Source: Candidatus Hodarchaeota archaeon | Lineage (GTDB): Archaea > Asgardarchaeota > Lokiarchaeia > Sigyniarchaeales > SOKP01 | Assembly (NCBI GenBank): GCA_048887225.1 | Contig: JBHLJY010000033.1 | Span: forward strand, 1 to 19,900 | DNA: 19,900 nt | Direction of reading: 5' to 3' | Shown: positions 4,298-17,687 of the stretch, one piece after another | How the letters are laid out: every line of letters begins with the position of its first letter | Position numbering within the stretch: the stretch's first letter is position 1 | Notes under the pieces: model-generated | Told to the model about the DNA's origin: nothing | Database searches by the model: none | Seen by the model: the letters and a program-made list of their open reading frames with translations, nothing else | Translations under genes and position numbers: made by a program

Positions 4298-4346
4298 TTT
4301 TTTTAAAATTTATTATTAATATATCCAATATATATTTTTTTTTCTG
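4298..4346 (+). terminator. Oligo-T tract, putative archaeal intrinsic terminator
   Basis: T7 run directly after the TGA stop at 4297 and a T9 run near 4335-4343. Confidence 0.4.
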
Positions 4347-4434
4347 AATGTTTTTCATTTTTTTTATAATTTAGTGAAATCTTTTTGGTTTCTCTTCTAA
4401 GAATTGTTAGTTTGTATTGAAAAAGTTAAAAAAA

Positions 4435-4451
4435 CAAAACATTTTTATATG
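4435..4451 (+). promoter_or_regulatory. Putative BRE/TATA promoter of the hdrBC-gltB operon
   Basis: A-rich caaaac followed by tttttatatg, roughly 75 nt upstream of the inferred coding start. The AT-rich background limits specificity. Confidence 0.35.
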
Positions 4452-4524
4452 GTATAGTAATATAATTAAATAAAGATAATATAACTCTGCTTGGAAAATA
4501 TAACCTTGTAAGAAGTGATGGAAA

Positions 4525-5874
4525 ATAACAATTCAGCAAGAAATTGTATTATTTCCAGGATGTATGATATCGTATCGTTTGCCTTTTATCGAAGTGTCAA
4601 TTAGGAAAGCGTTAGAATTTTTTGGAATCCAATTTAGTGAAAACTCAAAATTTTCATGTTGCCCTGAGCCAAATGGTATAAAAAATTCAGATGAATTAAT
4701 TTATTCAATTACGGCGGCAAGAAATTTAGCTCTTGCTGAGAATGATAATAGGAGTATTTTAACCCCATGTAACGGTTGTTTTGAAACTTTAAAAGGGATT
4801 AGATCTGAAATAAGATCTGATTTACACTTTCAAGATAAAATAAACTCATACCTTTTGAAAATAGATTTAAAAGCTATTGGAAAAAGTGACGTTTTCCATT
4901 TAGTTGAATTCTTTCATAATTTAGGAGGGGATACTATAAAAGATAATATAAAATATCCCTTAACAGGATTACGTGTCGCTGTTCATTATGGATGTCATTT
5001 TCTTAGACCGAGTAATAAAATACAAATGGATGATCCAATGGAGCCCCATATTTTCGATGAATTAATTACTGATTTGGGTGCAAAAAGCGTCGAATATGAC
5101 AGAAAAATGGATTGCTGTGGCGGAAGTTTGGCAAGGGCAGATAATCCTGATTCAGGAATGGAAATGATTCATACTAAATTGGAAATAATGAAAGAAAGGA
5201 GAATTGATTGTATTGTTGTGGGTTGTCCACAATGTTTTATTCAATTTGACCATATACAACAAGATTTAAAGAAATTAGATTATGAGTACGATATTCCTGT
5301 GTTGTATTATTCAGAATTATTATGTATTGCTTTAGGTATCGATATAAGGGATATAATAAAAAGATATCATAGAACTCCAGTGGATAAAATCTTCGAAAAA
5401 GTGGATTTAATTCATGAGAAGAATGAGGTAATAAAACAATATTTCGATTTAGAATTTTTAAAAAAATGTTATGGATGCGGAGCATGTAATAATGATTGCC
5501 CCGTAGCTAAAATAACGACATTTGACCCTAATATAATAGTTAAAAAAATTTTAGAAGGGAAAATTGATGAATTATTGAAAGATCCATCCATATGGATGTG
5601 TCTTGATTGTTACGTATGCTATGAACTTTGTCCAATGAGGGTTGGATTAGTCGAAATATTTACAATCTTACGAAATTTGGCAAAAGAAAGAGGTTTTATA
5701 ACAAAAGGTTTTGAAGGAGAATATAATTCCTTCAAAAAAATGGGGACTGTTACATTGTTCTCACATTCTGCTAGAAAAAGAGTAGGGCTATTATCTAAAA
5801 AACCTCAGCTTGATGATTTAAAAAAAATGCTTAATGAACTTCAAATTAAAAAAGAATTGGAGGAAAAAAGTTAA
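4525..5874 (+). CDS. hdrBC: Heterodisulfide reductase-like HdrB-HdrC fusion (two CCG domains followed by a 2x[4Fe-4S] HdrC-like domain); true start lies upstream of the ORF-track ATG at 4564
   Basis: CCG motif 1 is C-X31-CC-X35-CNGC, whose first Cys (IVLFPGC, TGT at 4561) precedes ATG 4564. CCG motif 2 is HYGC-X39-CCGG...GCPQC. C-terminal CYGCGACNNDCP and IWMCLDCYVCYELCP are HdrC-type. Start coordinate is uncertain (ATA 4525, ATT 4531, or frameshift from ATG 4518). Confidence 0.9.
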   Translation: MTIQQEIVLFPGCMISYRLPFIEVSIRKALEFFGIQFSENSKFSCCPEPNGIKNSDELIYSITAARNLALAENDNRSILTPCNGCFETLKGIRSEIRSDLHFQDKINSYLLKIDLKAIGKSDVFHLVEFFHNLGGDTIKDNIKYPLTGLRVAVHYGCHFLRPSNKIQMDDPMEPHIFDELITDLGAKSVEYDRKMDCCGGSLARADNPDSGMEMIHTKLEIMKERRIDCIVVGCPQCFIQFDHIQQDLKKLDYEYDIPVLYYSELLCIALGIDIRDIIKRYHRTPVDKIFEKVDLIHEKNEVIKQYFDLEFLKKCYGCGACNNDCPVAKITTFDPNIIVKKILEGKIDELLKDPSIWMCLDCYVCYELCPMRVGLVEIFTILRNLAKERGFITKGFEGEYNSFKKMGTVTLFSHSARKRVGLLSKKPQLDDLKKMLNELQIKKELEEKS

Positions 5875-5876
5875 AA

Positions 5877-7070
5877 ATGAGATGGGAGAATTATACAAGC
5901 CCTTCTAAAAAATTTAGAAATGAAAGAGTTTTTGATGGATGTGGGATAACAGGATTTATAAATATTGATGGAACTCTCTCGAAAGGAGAAAAAATCATAG
6001 ATATGTTGAGTATTTTGCATGATCGAGAAAATGGCCTTGGTGCAGGATTCGCGGGATATGGAATATATCCTCAATATAAAAATTTCTATGCATTCCATTT
6101 TCTGTTCGATAATGATAAAATTAGATCAAATGTAGAAGATTTTCTTGTATCAAAAGGAGTCATAATTTATTCTGAGCCAATTCCTACAAAAAAGTCCTCT
6201 AATGTTGATAATCCTCCTCTTACTTGGCGAATATTTTTCGATCCAAAAGAAAGAAAGAGTATATCTCCAGATGAACAAATTGTTCAATTAGTAATGGAAA
6301 TAAATGAAAAAATAGATGGAGCTTTTGTTATGTCTTCAGGAAAAAATATGGGTGTTTTTAAGGGTAATGGATGGTCCCATGAGATTGCTGAATATTATAA
6401 TTTAAAAGATTATGGAGCATATATGTGGTTAGGACATAGTCGTTTTCCTACAAACACACCAGGATGGTGGGGGGGAGCTCATCCATTTAATTTATTAGGA
6501 ACTTCGGTAATTCATAATGGTGAGATAACCTCTTATGGAACAAATATGAGATATTTAGAGTCTTTTGGCTATAAATGTACCCTATTTACAGATACAGAAG
6601 TCATCGCATATTTATTTGATTTATTAGTTAGAAGACATAATATTCCAATTCCTATTGCTAGCTTAGCTTTGGCTCCCCCACTTTTTAATGAAATTGAAAG
6701 AATGGATAAGAAATTTCAACTTGCTCTTAAAAATATCAGAGCCACTTATCGATCTGCTATGTTAAACGGTCCTTTTTCTATTGTGGTTGGGCAAAATGAT
6801 CCAATACCGACTCTAATTGGATTATCAGATAGAAAAAAATTAAGACCTTTAGTTGCTGCAATATCAGACCATGAAAATACTGTTTATCTGAGTAGTGAGG
6901 AAGCTTCATTTAAAAGATTAATGTTAGATACAAAAAATTCTTATAAATTCAAAGAGATTTGGCATCCTAAAAGCGGAACTGCTGTTGTAGCTAGATTAGG
7001 AGATGGACTTCTTCGAAATGGTCTTGAAACGCCATTTGAAAATTTAGAATTATCTGTAATAGGTGTTTAA
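5877..7070 (+). CDS. gltB1: Glutamate synthase glutamine amidotransferase subunit (class II/Ntn GATase, GltB domain 1)
   Basis: Propeptide then DGCGITG (Cys nucleophile after processing); RENGLGAGFAGYGIYP, GHSRFPTNTPGWWGGAHPF, HNGEITSYG, TDTEV, LNGPFS, DRKKLRP. Starts 2 nt after the hdrBC stop. Confidence 0.9.
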   Translation: MRWENYTSPSKKFRNERVFDGCGITGFINIDGTLSKGEKIIDMLSILHDRENGLGAGFAGYGIYPQYKNFYAFHFLFDNDKIRSNVEDFLVSKGVIIYSEPIPTKKSSNVDNPPLTWRIFFDPKERKSISPDEQIVQLVMEINEKIDGAFVMSSGKNMGVFKGNGWSHEIAEYYNLKDYGAYMWLGHSRFPTNTPGWWGGAHPFNLLGTSVIHNGEITSYGTNMRYLESFGYKCTLFTDTEVIAYLFDLLVRRHNIPIPIASLALAPPLFNEIERMDKKFQLALKNIRATYRSAMLNGPFSIVVGQNDPIPTLIGLSDRKKLRPLVAAISDHENTVYLSSEEASFKRLMLDTKNSYKFKEIWHPKSGTAVVARLGDGLLRNGLETPFENLELSVIGV

Positions 7071-7073
7071 AAA

Positions 7074-8594
7074 ATGTCTGTAAGTCATATTGTACCAACA
7101 TACTTTAGAGTAAATATTGATAGAGATTATTGTAAGAAATGTAAAAGATGTGTTCAGCATTGTAGTTATGGAGCTTTGAGTTTTAACGGAGAACGTATCA
7201 TTGCTGATGATACAAAATGTATTGCCTGTCAAAGATGTGTTACTATGTGCCCTGGTAAAGCAATTCAAGTTGTTCAAAATGAATCCTATTTGCCTCCTCA
7301 TGGACATTATACAAGAAGGATTCGTAATATAATTTGGGCTCAATCTGGTAATGGTGGAGTTTTACTTTCCGCTACTGGAAATGATAGACCAATCAGAACT
7401 ATATTTGATGATTTACTCCTCGATGCTTGTCAGGTTACAAATCCAGCAATAGACCCATTAAGAGAAACAATAGAGACTAAAGTGTTTTTTGGTCGGAAAC
7501 CAAGTAAACTTGAATTTTTGATGGATGAGAAGGATCCTGCAAAGGTGTCCTTAAAAACAGAATTCTATCCACATTTTGAGATTGATATGCCTATCATGGT
7601 AGGTCATATGAGCCTTGGCTCAATTAGTTATAATGCATGTATGGCCATATATCAAGCAGCAAAAGAACTAAATATTCTTTCAGGTTCTGGGGAAGGTGGT
7701 TTACATCCTGATTTTTATGAATACGGTCCAAATATTATTTCGGAAGTAGCTTCTGGCCGATTTGGAGTGGATGTTAATTATTTACATAATGTGGCAGGAT
7801 TAGAGATTAAAATTGGACAGGGTGCGAAACCAGGACATGGTGGACACTTGCCTGGTGAGAAAGTAAATAGCCTAATCTCTCAAACAAGAATGATCCCTAA
7901 AGGGTCGGATGCTCTTAGTCCTTACCCTCATCATGACATATATTCTATTGAGGATCTCGCACAATTAATAGCAGCATTAAAAGAGGCAACCCGGTATAGC
8001 GTTCCAGTTGGAGTAAAGATTGCTGCTGTCCATAATTCCGCACCTATAGCGATAGGCATTGTTCGGGGAGGGGCAGATTTCTTAACTCTTGATGGAATGA
8101 GAGGGGGTACTGGAGCAGCACCGAGAATTATTAGAGATCATGCTGGTATCCCAATTGAGTTAGCAATAGCTTCAGTAGACAGGAGATTGCGGGAAGAAGG
8201 GCTAAGAGATGAGATAACTCTTGTGGCAGGTGGTTCAATAAGGTATTCGGCAGATTTAATTAAAGCAATAGCGTTAGGTGCTGATGTAGGAATGTGTGCG
8301 TTACCTGTTTTAATTGCAATGGGATGTCGAGTTTGTCAGCAATGTTTTAGAGGCCTATGCTCATGGGGAATTGCAACACAACAAGAGTATCTTGTTAAAA
8401 GGCTCGATATTGATGTAGCAAGGAATCGTCTCATAAACCTTTTTCATAGCTGGAATGAAGAATTAAAAGAAGTGTTAGGAGCAATGGGAATTGATTCTGT
8501 CGAATCTCTTCGGTCAAATAGAGATAGATTAAGATATATTGGCCCAAATCCAAAAATTGCTGAAATATTAGGAGTAAAACATGCGGGAGAGTGA
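7074..8594 (+). CDS. gltB2: Archaeal-type glutamate synthase FMN subunit with N-terminal 2x[4Fe-4S] ferredoxin domain (GltB domain 2)
   Basis: CKKCKRCVQHC and CIACQRCVTMCP; MSLGSIS, SGEGG, VASGRFGV, EIKIGQGAKPGHGGHLPGEKV, PHHDIYSIEDL, DGMRGGTGAAP; Fe-S motif GCRVCQQCFRGLCSWG. Confidence 0.95.
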   Translation: MSVSHIVPTYFRVNIDRDYCKKCKRCVQHCSYGALSFNGERIIADDTKCIACQRCVTMCPGKAIQVVQNESYLPPHGHYTRRIRNIIWAQSGNGGVLLSATGNDRPIRTIFDDLLLDACQVTNPAIDPLRETIETKVFFGRKPSKLEFLMDEKDPAKVSLKTEFYPHFEIDMPIMVGHMSLGSISYNACMAIYQAAKELNILSGSGEGGLHPDFYEYGPNIISEVASGRFGVDVNYLHNVAGLEIKIGQGAKPGHGGHLPGEKVNSLISQTRMIPKGSDALSPYPHHDIYSIEDLAQLIAALKEATRYSVPVGVKIAAVHNSAPIAIGIVRGGADFLTLDGMRGGTGAAPRIIRDHAGIPIELAIASVDRRLREEGLRDEITLVAGGSIRYSADLIKAIALGADVGMCALPVLIAMGCRVCQQCFRGLCSWGIATQQEYLVKRLDIDVARNRLINLFHSWNEELKEVLGAMGIDSVESLRSNRDRLRYIGPNPKIAEILGVKHAGE

Positions 8595-9424
8595 AAAAAT
8601 TGATAAATAGTCATTTAATATTAAGTAAAGAGGATAAAAAAACTGTAGAAATAGATGCATGTCCAAATGGAGAACCATTAATTTATCAAGATTTAAATGA
8701 AGAAATTCACAAAGCTAAAAATAACGGATATGATAGATTAATTTTGAATAATGTTTGTGGACAAAGGTTCATTGCTGCCTCTATACAAGGAGATATTGAA
8801 ATTATTATAAATGGAGTTCCTGGAAATGATTTAGGTGTTTTTATGGATGGCCCTAAAATTATTGTCAATGGGAATTGCGAAGATCAAACAGGAAATACAA
8901 TGAATGATGGTTTTGTGATAATTGACGGGGATGGCGGGGATGTCATTGGCTTATCTGCAAGAGGAGGTAAAATCTATGTTAAAAAAGATGTTGGCTATAG
9001 AGTTGGAATTCACATTAAAGAATATGAACTTAAATACCCAACTATAATTATTGGAGGAACAGCAAAAGATTTTTTAGGAGAGTATATGGCAGGGGGTATG
9101 GTAATAGCTCTTGGTCTAAGATATTTACCTAATGGTACTGTGGCTGAAACTGATCAACCGATATGCGGTAATGAGTTAGGTACTGGGATTCATCGAGGTA
9201 AAATTTTTTTAAGAACAGATGAGGATTTAACACAAAAATTAGGAGTAGGAGCAAAAATTTTTGAAATTAATGAAAATGAGAGTAAAGAAATCGAGGTCTA
9301 TTTGAGAGAGTTTTGTGAGATTTTTAATATTCCATTTGAACTCATGTGGGCTAAACCGTTTAAAGTAATTAAACCAATTTCAAAAAGACCTTATGGTGGC
9401 AATTACTGTGGACAATATATATAG
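8591..9424 (+). CDS. gltB3: Glutamate synthase GXGXG beta-helix subunit (GltB domain 3 / FwdC-like)
   Basis: GQRFIA, GVPGNDLGVFMDG, GNTMNDG, RGGKIYV, VGYRVGIHIK, DFLGEYMAGG, GTGIHRG. GTG start overlaps the gltB2 stop (GTGA). Confidence 0.9.
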   Translation: MKKLINSHLILSKEDKKTVEIDACPNGEPLIYQDLNEEIHKAKNNGYDRLILNNVCGQRFIAASIQGDIEIIINGVPGNDLGVFMDGPKIIVNGNCEDQTGNTMNDGFVIIDGDGGDVIGLSARGGKIYVKKDVGYRVGIHIKEYELKYPTIIIGGTAKDFLGEYMAGGMVIALGLRYLPNGTVAETDQPICGNELGTGIHRGKIFLRTDEDLTQKLGVGAKIFEINENESKEIEVYLREFCEIFNIPFELMWAKPFKVIKPISKRPYGGNYCGQYI

Positions 9425-9478: not shown

Positions 9479-11011
9479 TTATTCATGCATTATTCTTGAA
9501 TTTTTTATTGAATTTTCAATTACGGCTAATTTATCAACTGATTTAAGAGGATAGTCTCCTGTTAAACATGCCAGACATAATTGATCTTTTCTTAATCCAA
9601 TTGATAGAATTAAATCATCTATCATTTGATATATTAGTGTATCAGCGCCTAGCATTTTTCTAGTCTCTTCAATATAATCCTTTCCAAATAATTTCAGGGA
9701 TCTACTAGCAATTAATTCATCCTTAGAGGGAAAATCAATCCCCATATAGCATGCGCTTATAATGGGAGGGCAACTAATTCTTAAATGGACAGCTTTTGCA
9801 CCGCCCTTTTCTTTTAACAAAGAAACAATTTGACTTGTAGTTGTACCTCTCACAACGGAATCATCAATTAGAATTACTTCTTTCCCCTGAATAACACTTC
9901 TTATTGGATTTAATTTTTCCTTAACAGCTGCCTTTCTTCGTTTTTGACCTGGCATTATAAAAGTCCTCCAAACATATCGATTTTTCATTAATCCCTCAAC
10001 ATAAGGTAATCCAGCTTCTTTTGCGTAACCTACAGACGCACTACGACCTGAATCAGGAACAGGAACTACTATGGCATTTTCTTTCATATTAGAGTCTAGC
10101 AAATATGGATCTCGTTTTGCTAAATATTTGCCTAATCTAAATCTAGCTTCAGCAACAGAAACTCCATCAATAATGGAATCTGGGCGTGCAAAATATACAA
10201 ACTCAAATTGACATAATGCTCCTCTTTTTTCTTTTAAAATTATTTCAGAATGAATATTTTCTTTAATGCTTAAATGAATGATCTCTCCAGGTTTAACGTC
10301 TCTTAAGAAAGATCCACCGACTGCATCAATAGCACATGATTCTGAAGCAATATAATACAAATTTCTTTTCTCTGTTTTTGACTCACCAATACATAAAGGC
10401 TTAAATCCGAGAGGATCTCGTATAGCATAAATATCGCCTTTTGGAGTCAATAAAATTAAAGAATATGAGCCTTCAAGATAATTGCTTGCTTTTTTTAAAA
10501 CTTCTGCCCAATCTTCTGTTTCTAAAGCAATTGATGCTATTAATTGACTAACAACTTCAGTATCTGTATTTGTTATAAAAACTCGCCCCATTTCATTTAA
10601 TTTTTCTTTAATCTCATCATAAACTGGTATCGTTCCATTGAAGGCTAAAGAAAATTCAAGCACATTATTCTTAAAATGATAGGGTTGTATATAATCAGAT
10701 GATGAGAATTCAGATGCCCCTGTGGTTGCATATCTATTATGTCCAATTCCAATATTGCCCCAAAAATGAGATTGAATTTTTTCATTTAAAACTTGAGAAA
10801 CTAATCCTTTCTTTTTATAAGTGAAAATTTTACCACCCGTTTGAAATATCGAAATACCAGCTGATTCTTGCCCTCGGTGTTGTAAAGCAATTAATCCTTG
10901 ATACAATAGTTGAGATACAGAATAGCTAATATCATCACAAATAACCCCGAAGACAGCACATTGCTCTAAGAGCTTATCTCTCGTATTATTATTTTTTTTT
11001 TTTAAATGCAT
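9479..11011 (-). CDS. purF: Amidophosphoribosyltransferase (Fe-S type, with N-terminal propeptide)
   Basis: EQCAVFG, LQHRGQESAGI, GHNRYATTG, RDPLGFKPL, CQFEFVYFARPDS, VPDSG, PRPP motif IDDSVVRGTT, CYMGIDFP, CLACLTGDYP. Confidence 0.97.
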   Translation of the reverse strand: MHLKKKNNNTRDKLLEQCAVFGVICDDISYSVSQLLYQGLIALQHRGQESAGISIFQTGGKIFTYKKKGLVSQVLNEKIQSHFWGNIGIGHNRYATTGASEFSSSDYIQPYHFKNNVLEFSLAFNGTIPVYDEIKEKLNEMGRVFITNTDTEVVSQLIASIALETEDWAEVLKKASNYLEGSYSLILLTPKGDIYAIRDPLGFKPLCIGESKTEKRNLYYIASESCAIDAVGGSFLRDVKPGEIIHLSIKENIHSEIILKEKRGALCQFEFVYFARPDSIIDGVSVAEARFRLGKYLAKRDPYLLDSNMKENAIVVPVPDSGRSASVGYAKEAGLPYVEGLMKNRYVWRTFIMPGQKRRKAAVKEKLNPIRSVIQGKEVILIDDSVVRGTTTSQIVSLLKEKGGAKAVHLRISCPPIISACYMGIDFPSKDELIASRSLKLFGKDYIEETRKMLGADTLIYQMIDDLILSIGLRKDQLCLACLTGDYPLKSVDKLAVIENSIKNSRIMHE

Positions 11012-15635: not shown

Positions 15636-16127
15636 TTATATTTTTTTCTTTTCTTGTTCCATTAATTCTATAAATGAAGTCCCTTCTTTAATGATATTCA
15701 AAATTAGATGAGTATTTGTGTGTTCAACGTAAGGTTTCGAATTGATTTCTTTTACAATCTCACTAAGATCTTTTCTTGTCTTAAATCTTGCTAAAATAAG
15801 TGCATCATATGTACCTGTGATATCATAAACACCGTAAACATTTGGAATTTTTGCAATATCTTTCTCTACCTCCAACATTTTACCCTTTGAAATTGTCAAT
15901 TCAATTAATGCGACGATATCATATCCCAATCTCTCATAATTAATATCTACTTTAAATCCATTAATAATATTCTTCTCTTTTAGCTCTTCTACATGTTTTG
16001 AGACTGTTGTCGGCGAATACTCTAATTCTCGACCGATTTCTCGAAACGATTTTCGGCAATCTTCGCTAAGCTTTTTTAATATCTCATAATCTGTTAAATC
16101 TAAATTTTGTAGATTTATATCATTCAT
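15636..16127 (-). CDS. Lrp/AsnC (feast/famine) transcriptional regulator
   Basis: HTH LDLTDYEILKKLSEDCRKSFREIGRELEYSPTTV; linker INYERLGY; RAM domain VYDITGTYD...HTNTHLIL. Confidence 0.95.
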   Translation of the reverse strand: MNDINLQNLDLTDYEILKKLSEDCRKSFREIGRELEYSPTTVSKHVEELKEKNIINGFKVDINYERLGYDIVALIELTISKGKMLEVEKDIAKIPNVYGVYDITGTYDALILARFKTRKDLSEIVKEINSKPYVEHTNTHLILNIIKEGTSFIELMEQEKKKI

Positions 16128-16287: not shown

Positions 16288-16331
16288 CTATTATGGTTTA
16301 TATGATCATAAAAAAAGAAATATTGATTGAT

Positions 16332-17687
16332 ATGATTGAAAAAGATGATCCAAATCGCTGGAAAATATGCGATAAAGTAATTGAGACTGTAAAAGAACAA
16401 GACATTAAATTTATTTATCTCCAATTCACTGATATCCATGGTATTATTAAATCTTTTGAAATTAATGCTAACAGAGTAGAAGATTTCTTACAAGATGGAG
16501 AAAATTTTGATGGTAGTTCGATTACTGGTTATGGTGCTATAGAAGAATCAGATAAAGTAGCGGTTCCTGATCCAAGCACTTTTTGCATAATTCCATGGAG
16601 GAAAGATAAGAATGTAGCTAGATTTTTTAGTGATATATATAATCCTGACGGTTCCCGTTATGATGGCGATCCCAGATATATACTTCAAAAAGCCGTGAAG
16701 AAAGCAAGGAAACATGGATATGAGTATTTTTGTGCTCCTGAACTAGAATTCTTTATTTTAGAAAAAACTACAACAGAACAAGCATTTAGTCCATCAGACA
16801 TGAGAGGGTATTTTGACTATGATCCTTATGATATTAATGAAAGAATGAGATTTACGTTTGCTGAATATTGCGATGCTATGGGTATCGAGATAGAAGTGCT
16901 GCACCACGAAGTTGCTCTTGGACAACACGAGATAGATTTCAAGTATGGACCAGTAATAGAAACTGCAGACAATACTAATACAATAAAAATGATTGTAAAG
17001 ACTGTAGCAGCCCAGAACAACATGACTGCAACCTTTATGCCAAAACCATTTGCGGGAATAAATGGGTCAGGAATGCATGTTCACCAGTCTCTATGGAAGG
17101 ATGGTAAAAATGTATTTTATGATGATTCTGACAAAGATTATATCTCTCATATGATGAAAAAATGGATTGCTGGGCAATTAAAACATGCAAGAGCAATGTG
17201 TGCTGTTCTAAGTAGCTGGCCAAATTCATATAAAAGATTAGTCCCCGGCTTTGAAGCACCGGTTTATGTTGCATGGGGTTTTAGAAATAGATCTCCTCTA
17301 ATTCGAGTTCCTAATTTTGGAGGAAAGCCAAATGCAGCGAGATGTGAGATTAGATGTCCAGATCCAGCGGGAAATCCATACCTACAATTTGCTGTTCTAT
17401 TATCAACAGGTTTAGATGGTTTATTAGCTGAAGATATTGAAATTCCAGAACCAACCGACCTTAATGTATATCATTTATCAACAAAAGAGTTGTTAAAATC
17501 AGGAATTATTTCATTACCTGGCAGTCTCAGCGAAGCCCTTAAGGAATTTCAGTCGTCTGAATTCATGAAAGAAGTATTTGGTGAAGACCCATTTAAAAAT
17601 TTCCTTTATGCCAAGCTAGAAGAAAATGATGCATTCCGTGTTGTAGTAAGCGAGTGGGAACGAGATAGATATATTACAAGGTTATAA
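16332..17687 (+). CDS. glnA: Glutamine synthetase type I (GSI-alpha-like); ORF track starts at 16293 but 16332 is more likely
   Basis: QFTDIHG, FDGSSI, APELEFF, HHEVALGQHEI, TFMPKP, NGSGMHVHQS, SYKRLVPGFEAP, NRSPLIRVP, RCEIRCPDPAGNPY. Confidence 0.95.
   Translation: MIEKDDPNRWKICDKVIETVKEQDIKFIYLQFTDIHGIIKSFEINANRVEDFLQDGENFDGSSITGYGAIEESDKVAVPDPSTFCIIPWRKDKNVARFFSDIYNPDGSRYDGDPRYILQKAVKKARKHGYEYFCAPELEFFILEKTTTEQAFSPSDMRGYFDYDPYDINERMRFTFAEYCDAMGIEIEVLHHEVALGQHEIDFKYGPVIETADNTNTIKMIVKTVAAQNNMTATFMPKPFAGINGSGMHVHQSLWKDGKNVFYDDSDKDYISHMMKKWIAGQLKHARAMCAVLSSWPNSYKRLVPGFEAPVYVAWGFRNRSPLIRVPNFGGKPNAARCEIRCPDPAGNPYLQFAVLLSTGLDGLLAEDIEIPEPTDLNVYHLSTKELLKSGIISLPGSLSEALKEFQSSEFMKEVFGEDPFKNFLYAKLEENDAFRVVVSEWERDRYITRL

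Follow-up and report, generated by a model that had tools for sequence, protein, structure and literature searches.

The stretch of DNA analysed here is a complete 19.9-kb contig (C33; hereafter the window) from the genome of a Candidatus Hodarchaeota archaeon. It carries a tightly packed run of four genes, in which a gene for an HdrB-HdrC fusion protein (hdrBC) is followed by the three genes of a split, archaeal-type glutamate synthase (GOGAT; gltB1, gltB2 and gltB3). The genome comprises 3.27 Mb in 49 contigs, is 98% complete and has a G+C content of approximately 31%. Comparison of the window with homologous loci in archaea and bacteria indicates that HdrBC is very probably a dedicated redox subunit of the split GOGAT. 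Judging from the sequences, the four genes probably encode one enzyme with the HdrB-HdrC fusion as its electron-input subunit, and a dithiol is the donor that we somewhat favor for it.

The four genes are arranged on the forward strand as follows.

4525/4564-5874, + strand: hdrBC, two CCG domains and a Fer4 dicluster (Pfam), start codon uncertain

5877-7070, + strand: gltB1, Pfam GATase_2, the class II glutamine amidotransferase piece

7074-8594, + strand: gltB2, Pfam Glu_synthase (E 6e-125) and N-terminal Fer4 families

8591-9424, + strand: gltB3, Pfam GXGXG (PF01493; E 1.5e-29), the beta-helix piece

A preliminary description of the window had placed hdrBC as the first gene of a packed run with gltB1, gltB2 and gltB3, and the open reading frames (ORFs) and junction sequences agree with this. 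The TAA stop of hdrBC (5872-5874) is separated by 2 nucleotides (nt) from the ATG of gltB1 (5877), the end of gltB1 (7070) lies 3 nt before the ATG of gltB2 (7074), and the GTG start of gltB3 (8591) overlaps the TGA stop of gltB2 (8592-8594) by 4 nt in the sequence GTGA. A purine-rich stretch (GGAGG/GGTG/GGGAG) precedes each of the three downstream starts (gltB1, gltB2 and gltB3).

HdrBC consists of an HdrB-like part, with two CCG domains and ten conserved cysteines, fused to an HdrC-like part with two CX2CX2CX3C motifs. Its best NCBIfam models are HdrB (TIGR03288, E 5.6e-73) and HdrC (TIGR03290, E 3.2e-24). A profile of the HdrBC family matches solved HdrB proteins over their full length (8rvu_b, E 7.5e-99; 5odc_B, E 9e-91) and solved HdrC as well (5odc_C, E 1.3e-24). 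Across 43 HdrBC sequences from many phyla, the eight cysteines of the HdrC part never vary, and neither do the ten CCG cysteines apart from the first (C13), which is nearly invariant. The closest homologues in the protein collection come from Promethearchaeota/Lokiarchaeota metagenome-assembled genomes (MAGs), and the annotation given there to the hdrBC gene is that of a heterodisulfide reductase subunit or relative, or of an iron-sulfur protein, with no link to GOGAT.

The 5' end of hdrBC is unusual. The first ATG, GTG or TTG of the frame lies at 4564, past the codon for the first conserved cysteine (TGT, 4561), and a start at ATG 4564 would therefore lose the first cluster cysteine. Because no ATG, GTG or TTG precedes that codon, the sequence indicates either that the true start lies upstream and is non-canonical (ATA 4525, ATT 4531 or ATT 4543) or that it contains a frame error. 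The entry for HdrBC in the protein collection, with 443 amino acids (aa), corresponds to a start at ATT 4543. An ATG at 4518 is one base out of the hdrBC frame, and skipping the next G would give M-K-I-T-I-Q-Q-E-I-V-L-F-P-G-C, a hypothetical N-terminus resembling that of homologue P0010. Candidate causes within the interval 4511-4564 are a non-AUG start, a sequencing error or a frameshift.

On every sequence criterion applied (amidotransferase, FMN/synthase plus Fe-S motif, and GXGXG), GltB1, GltB2 and GltB3 are identified as a glutamate synthase. In GltB1, Cys22 of the SGCG motif and the HNGE motif are invariant in 24 sequences, and processing of the N-terminus is implied because Cys22 sits behind a 21-residue leader. 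GltB2 contains an N-terminal 2x[4Fe-4S] ferredoxin-like domain (approximately 7110-7284), a flavin mononucleotide (FMN)/synthase domain (PF01645, approximately 7398-8492) and, near its C-terminus, a CX2CX2CX4C motif. The cysteines of all three regions (C20/23/26/30, C49/52/55/59 and C418/421/424/429) are invariant in 41 sequences, and the pattern of C418, C421, C424 and C429 corresponds to the classical CX5CX4C spacing with one extra cysteine. GltB2 is the sole product of the genome with a Glu_synthase domain above a marginal match, and the hdrBC-linked gltB1-gltB2-gltB3 set is the only GOGAT of the genome. Identification as N-methylglutamate synthase or another GltB-like enzyme was set aside on the basis of the ferredoxin-like domain, the context of glnA and a nitrogen regulator, and the absence of any other GOGAT from the genome.

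No pyridine-nucleotide or F420 site was found in HdrBC, GltB1, GltB2 or GltB3, and no GltD gene occurs in the window or beside the four-gene unit in the 80 loci described below. The preliminary description had noted that the window lacks GltD, an FrhB-like subunit, a free ferredoxin, hdrA and mvhD. Domain scans bear this out: among the other window ORFs of at least 80 aa, Pfam and NCBIfam detected no GltD, FrhB, HdrA, MvhD or ferredoxin domain, and the intergenic regions inspected hold no small cysteine-rich ORFs. Fer4_20 matches are found in the genome at two places without linkage to the operon, in a 477-aa frame on C46 and a 928-aa frame on C22, and all 11 FrhB-like genes lie on other contigs.

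The strongest evidence that HdrBC belongs to this enzyme is the conservation of the four-gene unit. Using an alignment of 16 diverse HdrBC homologues, we fetched 80 loci from species-representative genomes. In all 72 informative loci, hdrBC is clustered with gltB1, and then with gltB2 and gltB3 as far as the DNA extends, while the remaining eight end at a contig edge 0 to 433 nt from hdrBC. The order hdrBC-gltB1-gltB2-gltB3 is maintained in 70 of the 72, and the other two (L021 and L026) are rearranged but clustered. The loci span archaea (Promethearchaeota, Thorarchaeota, Hermodarchaeota and the anaerobic methanotrophic (ANME) lineage ANME-2/Methanosarcinales) and bacteria (Actinomycetota, with Coriobacteriia, Thermoleophilia and Gaiellales; Bacillota; Nitrospinae (Nitrospinota); Thermodesulfobacteriota; and Armatimonadota), and HdrBC identity to the window protein drops to 32-41% in the non-Asgard loci. 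The adjacency of hdrBC and gltB1-gltB2-gltB3 is not due to chance. In the preliminary description HdrBC was considered a dedicated partner of the split glutamate synthase, a view that would fall if the adjacency were not conserved in relatives. Its persistence in every informative locus, across several phyla, argues for that view, and in a sample of 151 Asgard genomes the adjacency was again recovered as far as the contigs permitted.

In this even sample, HdrBC orthologues have a patchy distribution, being present in 13 of the 151 genomes, and all 13 have an orthologous gltB2. In 11 of these carriers, hdrBC and gltB2 share a contig and are approximately 1.2 kb apart; in the other two, they fall on different contigs of fragmented assemblies. 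Trees of HdrBC and GltB2 share an Asgard clade, a Methanosarcinales clade, an Actinomycetota clade (with L054 and L063 nested within it) and the pairing of L021 with L026, which suggests that the unit has been inherited or transferred together. Strict monophyly of the GOGAT-linked HdrBC proteins was not accepted, since the full-length HdrBC tree is unresolved at its base. A tree of the HdrB part does place these proteins in one group, on a weakly supported branch (72.8) that separates them from seven other HdrB proteins, including six paralogues from the window's own genome.

Clustering of all ORFs flanking the unit in the 80 loci revealed no other conserved redox gene. The recurrent neighbors are glnA, an Lrp/AsnC regulator in Asgard archaea and, in 29 loci of Actinomycetota type, a PdtaS-like kinase together with an ANTAR response regulator. 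Of the 80 loci, 32 have a glnA homologue inside the stretch fetched, in many cases as an immediate neighbor of the four genes, and Lrp/AsnC regulator homologues adjoin the hdrBC-gltB cluster in several Asgard loci.

The position occupied by hdrBC can also be filled by a different redox protein. In three Asgard loci (L090-L092), the gene order is glnA, a 460-aa Pyr_redox_2/Rubredoxin_C flavoprotein, gltB1, gltB2, gltB3 and a small 2x[4Fe-4S] ferredoxin. The flavoprotein gene (L090:9281-10666, - strand; L091:8747-10108, - strand; L092:1659-3038, + strand) lies directly upstream of gltB1, which it overlaps, in the slot of hdrBC, and one genome (G041) carries both the HdrBC and the flavoprotein forms of the split GOGAT. 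An FrhB-type fourth subunit has been predicted for the split glutamate synthases of methanogens and ANME archaea (PMC3448663, PMC3087415, PMC9012536). Because a flavoprotein occupies the hdrBC slot in other Asgard genomes, the slot appears to hold an exchangeable electron-input module, and the simplest reading is that the split core takes such modules via the ferredoxin-like domain of GltB2, with HdrBC being one of them. A third type of cluster (L093:156-7899 and L094:12-7851) encodes an HdrA-MvhD fusion of approximately 1000 aa, HdrC, HdrB, an FrhB-like protein, a GltB3-like protein and a GltB2-like protein, without the amidotransferase piece (GltB1).

It could be argued that HdrBC is co-located or co-regulated with GltB1-GltB2-GltB3 without being obligatory, as a redox sensor or switch or as a dispensable accessory, and that the core is fed by ferredoxin through the GltB2 dicluster. 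All variants have a 2x[4Fe-4S] domain within GltB2 itself, and this domain could take electrons directly from ferredoxin. Moreover, one genome (G083, L089), in which a search detected no further HdrBC, has intact gltB1-gltB2-gltB3 genes (68-80% identical) beside an hdrBC remnant of which only the last ~63 codons are left, with a stop inside (L089:9163-9351). Such a locus may reflect a recent loss en route to decay, or a core that works without HdrBC; the latter would speak against HdrBC as the input subunit. We nonetheless regard an accessory role as quite unlikely: the synteny holds in 72 of 72 informative loci, the two trees agree in their groupings, a flavoprotein fills the same slot in another variant, and a protein with four clusters would be a costly sensor. 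The DNA upstream of the L089 remnant holds fragments of an unrelated gene, suggestive of a deletion or rearrangement.

Alternatively, HdrBC might be an iron-sulfur adaptor that wires GltB2 to a separate HdrA/MvhD-type partner (perhaps a bifurcating one), a hydrogenase or a ferredoxin, with its CCG site not used for thiols. Remote partners are possible, as the genome encodes HdrA, approximately 25 CCG proteins, 11 MvhD-like proteins and the 11 FrhB-like proteins elsewhere, and the clusters of L093 and L094 show that glutamate-synthase-like FMN proteins can sit in HdrA-containing clusters. MvhD-like genes are also present in four of the five bacterial carriers tested, so that the absence of MvhD does not discriminate as a test of a remote HdrA. 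However, none of the 80 loci shows a conserved hdrA, mvhD or frhB gene adjoining the four-gene unit; both CCG motifs are kept across phyla, which a mere wire would not need; and the HdrA clusters lack GltB1 and encode GltB2-like proteins far removed from that of the window (branch length 2.67). We consider an adaptor function unlikely. The docking of a remote HdrA entertained in the preliminary description found no support in these loci, although the genome does hold many MvhD- and HdrA-like genes at other places. Four MvhD-like frames of this genome contain two in-frame TGA codons each (C16:30595-30960, C1:307500-307868, C8:59816-60184 and C1:229491-229856) and are candidates for selenocysteine-containing MvhD/VhuD-type proteins.

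For HdrBC as the electron-input subunit, pointers to a donor come from a small group of bacterial loci. In L021 (Eubacteriales), the order is gltB1-gltB2-gltB3, Lpd (Pyr_redox_2 and Pyr_redox_dim), LplA/B, LipA, a 77-aa lipoyl-domain protein and hdrBC. In L026 (Peptococcaceae), it is gltB3, Lpd, a 78-aa lipoyl-domain protein, hdrBC and gltB1-gltB2. A third locus (L104), found by a search with the 77-aa protein, has the L021 order, with glnA in front and a radical SAM gene in the place of LipA. In all three, the lipoyl carrier (76-78 aa) is encoded immediately upstream of hdrBC. Since the carrier adjoins hdrBC and matches the dithiol/disulfide site of HdrB type, we tentatively put forward a lipoyl protein as a possible donor in the window's own organism.

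The genome of the window encodes one GcvH-family protein with a lipoyl-lysine motif (C4:16215-16646), two Lpd-type proteins and an LplA whose gene is flanked by two radical SAM genes (C17:23417-26266), all of them unlinked to the operon. Searches of this genome recovered neither GcvT, GcvP or LipA nor any E2-type lipoyl domain, and the GcvH-type carrier is therefore left without a classical partner enzyme. One of the two Lpd-type genes lies back-to-back with an hdrC-hdrB-hdrA operon on C12 (C12:19843-26590; L098), together with a 182-aa ORF without family, an arrangement that provides another hint of a redox link of Hdr/lipoate type in this genome.

In the proposed mechanism, two CCG-motif (noncubane) [4Fe-4S] clusters would make up the HdrB-type site, where a dithiol is converted to the disulfide. 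The two HdrC-type [4Fe-4S] clusters would relay the electrons to the N-terminal pair of [4Fe-4S] clusters in GltB2, from where they would reach FMN via the CX2CX2CX4C cluster of GltB2. The reduced FMN would in turn reduce 2-iminoglutarate, formed from 2-oxoglutarate and the ammonia that GltB1 frees from glutamine. The likeliest dithiol would be a protein-bound dihydrolipoyl group, carried here by the orphan GcvH-type protein and re-reduced by an Lpd-type flavoprotein with NAD(P)H. By our own estimate, from the glutamate dehydrogenase couple and glutamine hydrolysis, the effective acceptor couple of GOGAT lies at approximately -0.1 V. Lipoamide has an E0' of approximately -0.29 V (quoted in PMC6067878); the GOGAT couple is thus far more positive, and a dithiol-driven reaction would be exergonic. 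It is conceivable, and we suggest it with reserve, that the unit represents a further, dithiol-driven class of glutamate synthase, in which a lipoylated carrier is kept reduced by an Lpd-type flavoprotein and oxidized at the noncubane-cluster site of HdrB type.

Several observations weigh against this scheme. The in-cluster lipoyl and Lpd genes occur in three loci of a single Bacillota lineage, and neither a lipoyl nor an Lpd gene is present in the window or within the fetched DNA of the other 78 of the 80 loci. Related free lipoyl proteins are encoded away from any hdrBC gene in five loci (L101, L102, L103, L105 and L106), and the lipoyl carrier family is not specific to the hdrBC-gltB operon. 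Genes of the GcvH family are nearly universal in Asgard archaea (142 of 151 genomes), and lipoate ligases were found in 11 of 12 carriers and also in 13 of 14 control genomes; the presence of GcvH and LplA in carriers therefore neither refutes nor supports the lipoate idea. HdrBC itself scores under the equivalog cut-offs of both of its best models (245.7 bits against 345.15 for TIGR03288, and 85.5 against 160 for TIGR03290). We infer the physical complex, the direction of electron flow and the identity of the donor in this archaeon. A complex prediction for HdrBC and GltB2, each with an alignment, gave a score of 0.12 relative to a mark of 0.32, which counts neither for nor against binding.

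The dithiol need not be protein-bound: the donor could be low-molecular-weight thiols such as the coenzyme M (CoM) and coenzyme B (CoB) thiols, CoM-SH and CoB-SH, as in thiol:fumarate reductase. The closest solved relatives of HdrBC are subunits of CoB-CoM heterodisulfide reductase, TfrB is among its weak NCBIfam matches (NF004898, 58 bits against a cut-off of 385), and the same operon is present in ANME-2/Methanosarcinales, which make both coenzymes. Set against this, searches of the 98% complete genome for ComA and McrA recovered neither, although the lack of ComA alone says little, as its control gave no match in Methanosarcina acetivorans either. Moreover, most HdrBC carriers are bacteria that are not known to produce either coenzyme. 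With ComA and McrA both undetected, CoM and CoB are unlikely as the thiols of this organism, and we judge low-molecular-weight thiols in general to be very unlikely donors. The thiol-driven GOGAT of the preliminary description has thus fared unevenly. The idea of a thiol-type donor is borne out in direction by the Lpd and lipoyl carrier genes beside hdrBC in three Bacillota loci, and CoM and CoB did not hold up as the thiols here.

A quinol could also deliver electrons to the CCG domains, as has been proposed for CCG proteins of SdhE and GlpC type. The second-best NCBIfam match of HdrBC is indeed SdhE, the anchor of methylmenaquinol:fumarate reductase (E 2.3e-42, below cut-off). The operon, however, shows no membrane anchor or partner gene, menaquinol would by our own estimate be barely reducing enough, and the lipoyl and Lpd genes of the three Bacillota loci point to a soluble dithiol. 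A quinol donor is accordingly the least credible of the explanations considered here and highly improbable.

The remaining features of the window are as follows.

3-1559, + strand: guaA

1697-4297, + strand: PEP-synthase/PPDK-like gene, 866-aa product

4298-4524, + strand: AT-rich intergenic region upstream of hdrBC with no ORF of note, presumed to hold the operon promoter and 5' leader

9479-11011, - strand: purF

Between purF and the Lrp/AsnC gene: a major facilitator superfamily (MFS) transporter gene, then a DUF6512 gene

15636-16127, - strand: Lrp/AsnC-type regulator (Pfam AsnC_trans_reg and HTH_24), divergent from glnA

16293-17687, + strand: glnA, glutamine synthetase (Pfam Gln-synt_C, E 2.6e-122), 6.9 kb downstream of gltB3

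The genes for glutamine-using and glutamine-making enzymes (guaA, gltB1, purF and glnA) are grouped around the Lrp/AsnC regulator in a small nitrogen island. The PEP-synthase/PPDK-like protein has a full-length homologue with 36% identity encoded immediately 3' of gltB3 in a Methanosarcinaceae MAG (L045:8154-10760); the gene thus recurs beside the operon in two distant lineages, and none was seen in the other loci. In the Actinomycetota-type clusters, the ANTAR response regulator is encoded directly upstream of hdrBC, and the PdtaS-like histidine kinase recurs upstream in the same loci (the two families, with 29 loci each, are represented by L037:9261-9830 and L048:3348-4781). This recurrence suggests antitermination control of the operon in these clusters.

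Together with glutamine synthetase, GOGAT forms the main entry of ammonium into biomass, and GOGAT classes are set by their electron donor: ferredoxin, NADPH, NADH and, as predicted, F420. The conserved unit reported here bears on the donor of the split archaeal-type GOGAT and on the substrates of Hdr-like proteins in Asgard archaea and non-methanogenic bacteria, and it may alter the scoring of nitrogen assimilation in genome-based metabolic models of anaerobes. By joining an HdrB-type site to a well-understood acceptor reaction, it offers a simple, assayable system. If the lipoyl-fed scheme is true, a physiological substrate and a role would for the first time be defined for one of the numerous Hdr-like proteins found in Asgard archaea and non-methanogenic anaerobes, and protein-bound lipoate would prove to be a redox currency of general use beyond glycine cleavage and the 2-oxoacid dehydrogenases.

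A literature search, whose coverage did not extend to subscription journals, found no paper describing an hdrBC-glutamate synthase arrangement, and the unit can be placed by comparison with systems that share its parts. The amidotransferase, FMN/synthase and GXGXG parts are common to NAD(P)H-GOGAT (GltB-GltD), ferredoxin-GOGAT and the predicted F420-dependent FGltS. FGltS(I) and FGltS(II) of methanogens (PMC3448663, PMC3087415) likewise consist of a three-gene core with a fourth gene taken to encode the input subunit, and the proximity of glnA is a further shared feature. What sets the present unit apart from these forms, whose donors are known or predicted, is that an HdrB-HdrC fusion stands in the place of GltD or of the FrhB-type subunit. 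HdrBC resembles HdrB and HdrC of the methanogen HdrABC complex (PDB 5ODC, 7BKB and 8RVU) over its full length, with the ten CCG cysteines and two ferredoxin-type clusters. It differs from them in that B and C are fused, in that order, with no adjacent HdrA or MvhD and with scores under the equivalog cut-offs, in an organism that shows no sign of CoM or methanogenesis (ComA and McrA not found). The proposed direction differs as well, in that thiol oxidation would feed a biosynthetic reductase.

That direction has a precedent in TfrAB, the thiol:fumarate reductase of Methanothermobacter, in which a CCG-domain subunit oxidizes thiols to drive a biosynthetic reduction. The resemblance lies in the proposed mechanism only: TfrB has the opposite domain order to HdrBC and an extra [2Fe-2S] domain, HdrBC falls below the TfrB model cut-off, and the acceptor enzymes are unrelated. 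A second parallel is the sulfur-oxidizing sHdr-LbpA system, in which gene order ties an Hdr-like module to a single-domain lipoyl carrier, a dedicated lipoate ligase (LplA) and two radical SAM proteins and, in archaea, also to a dihydrolipoamide dehydrogenase (PMC6067878). The complexes of this system require their GcvH-like lipoate-binding proteins (PMC6067878), and the window's genome has a comparable set of LplA plus two radical SAM genes and an orphan GcvH-type protein. sHdr-LbpA includes HdrA and a second HdrBC set, has a role in sulfur oxidation and is thought to reduce lipoate (PMC6067878), whereas here lipoate would be the donor and glutamate synthase the partner. By analogy, the hdrBC-linked GOGAT would work like both thiol:fumarate reductase and the lipoate-linked sHdr system, while appearing to be a member of neither.

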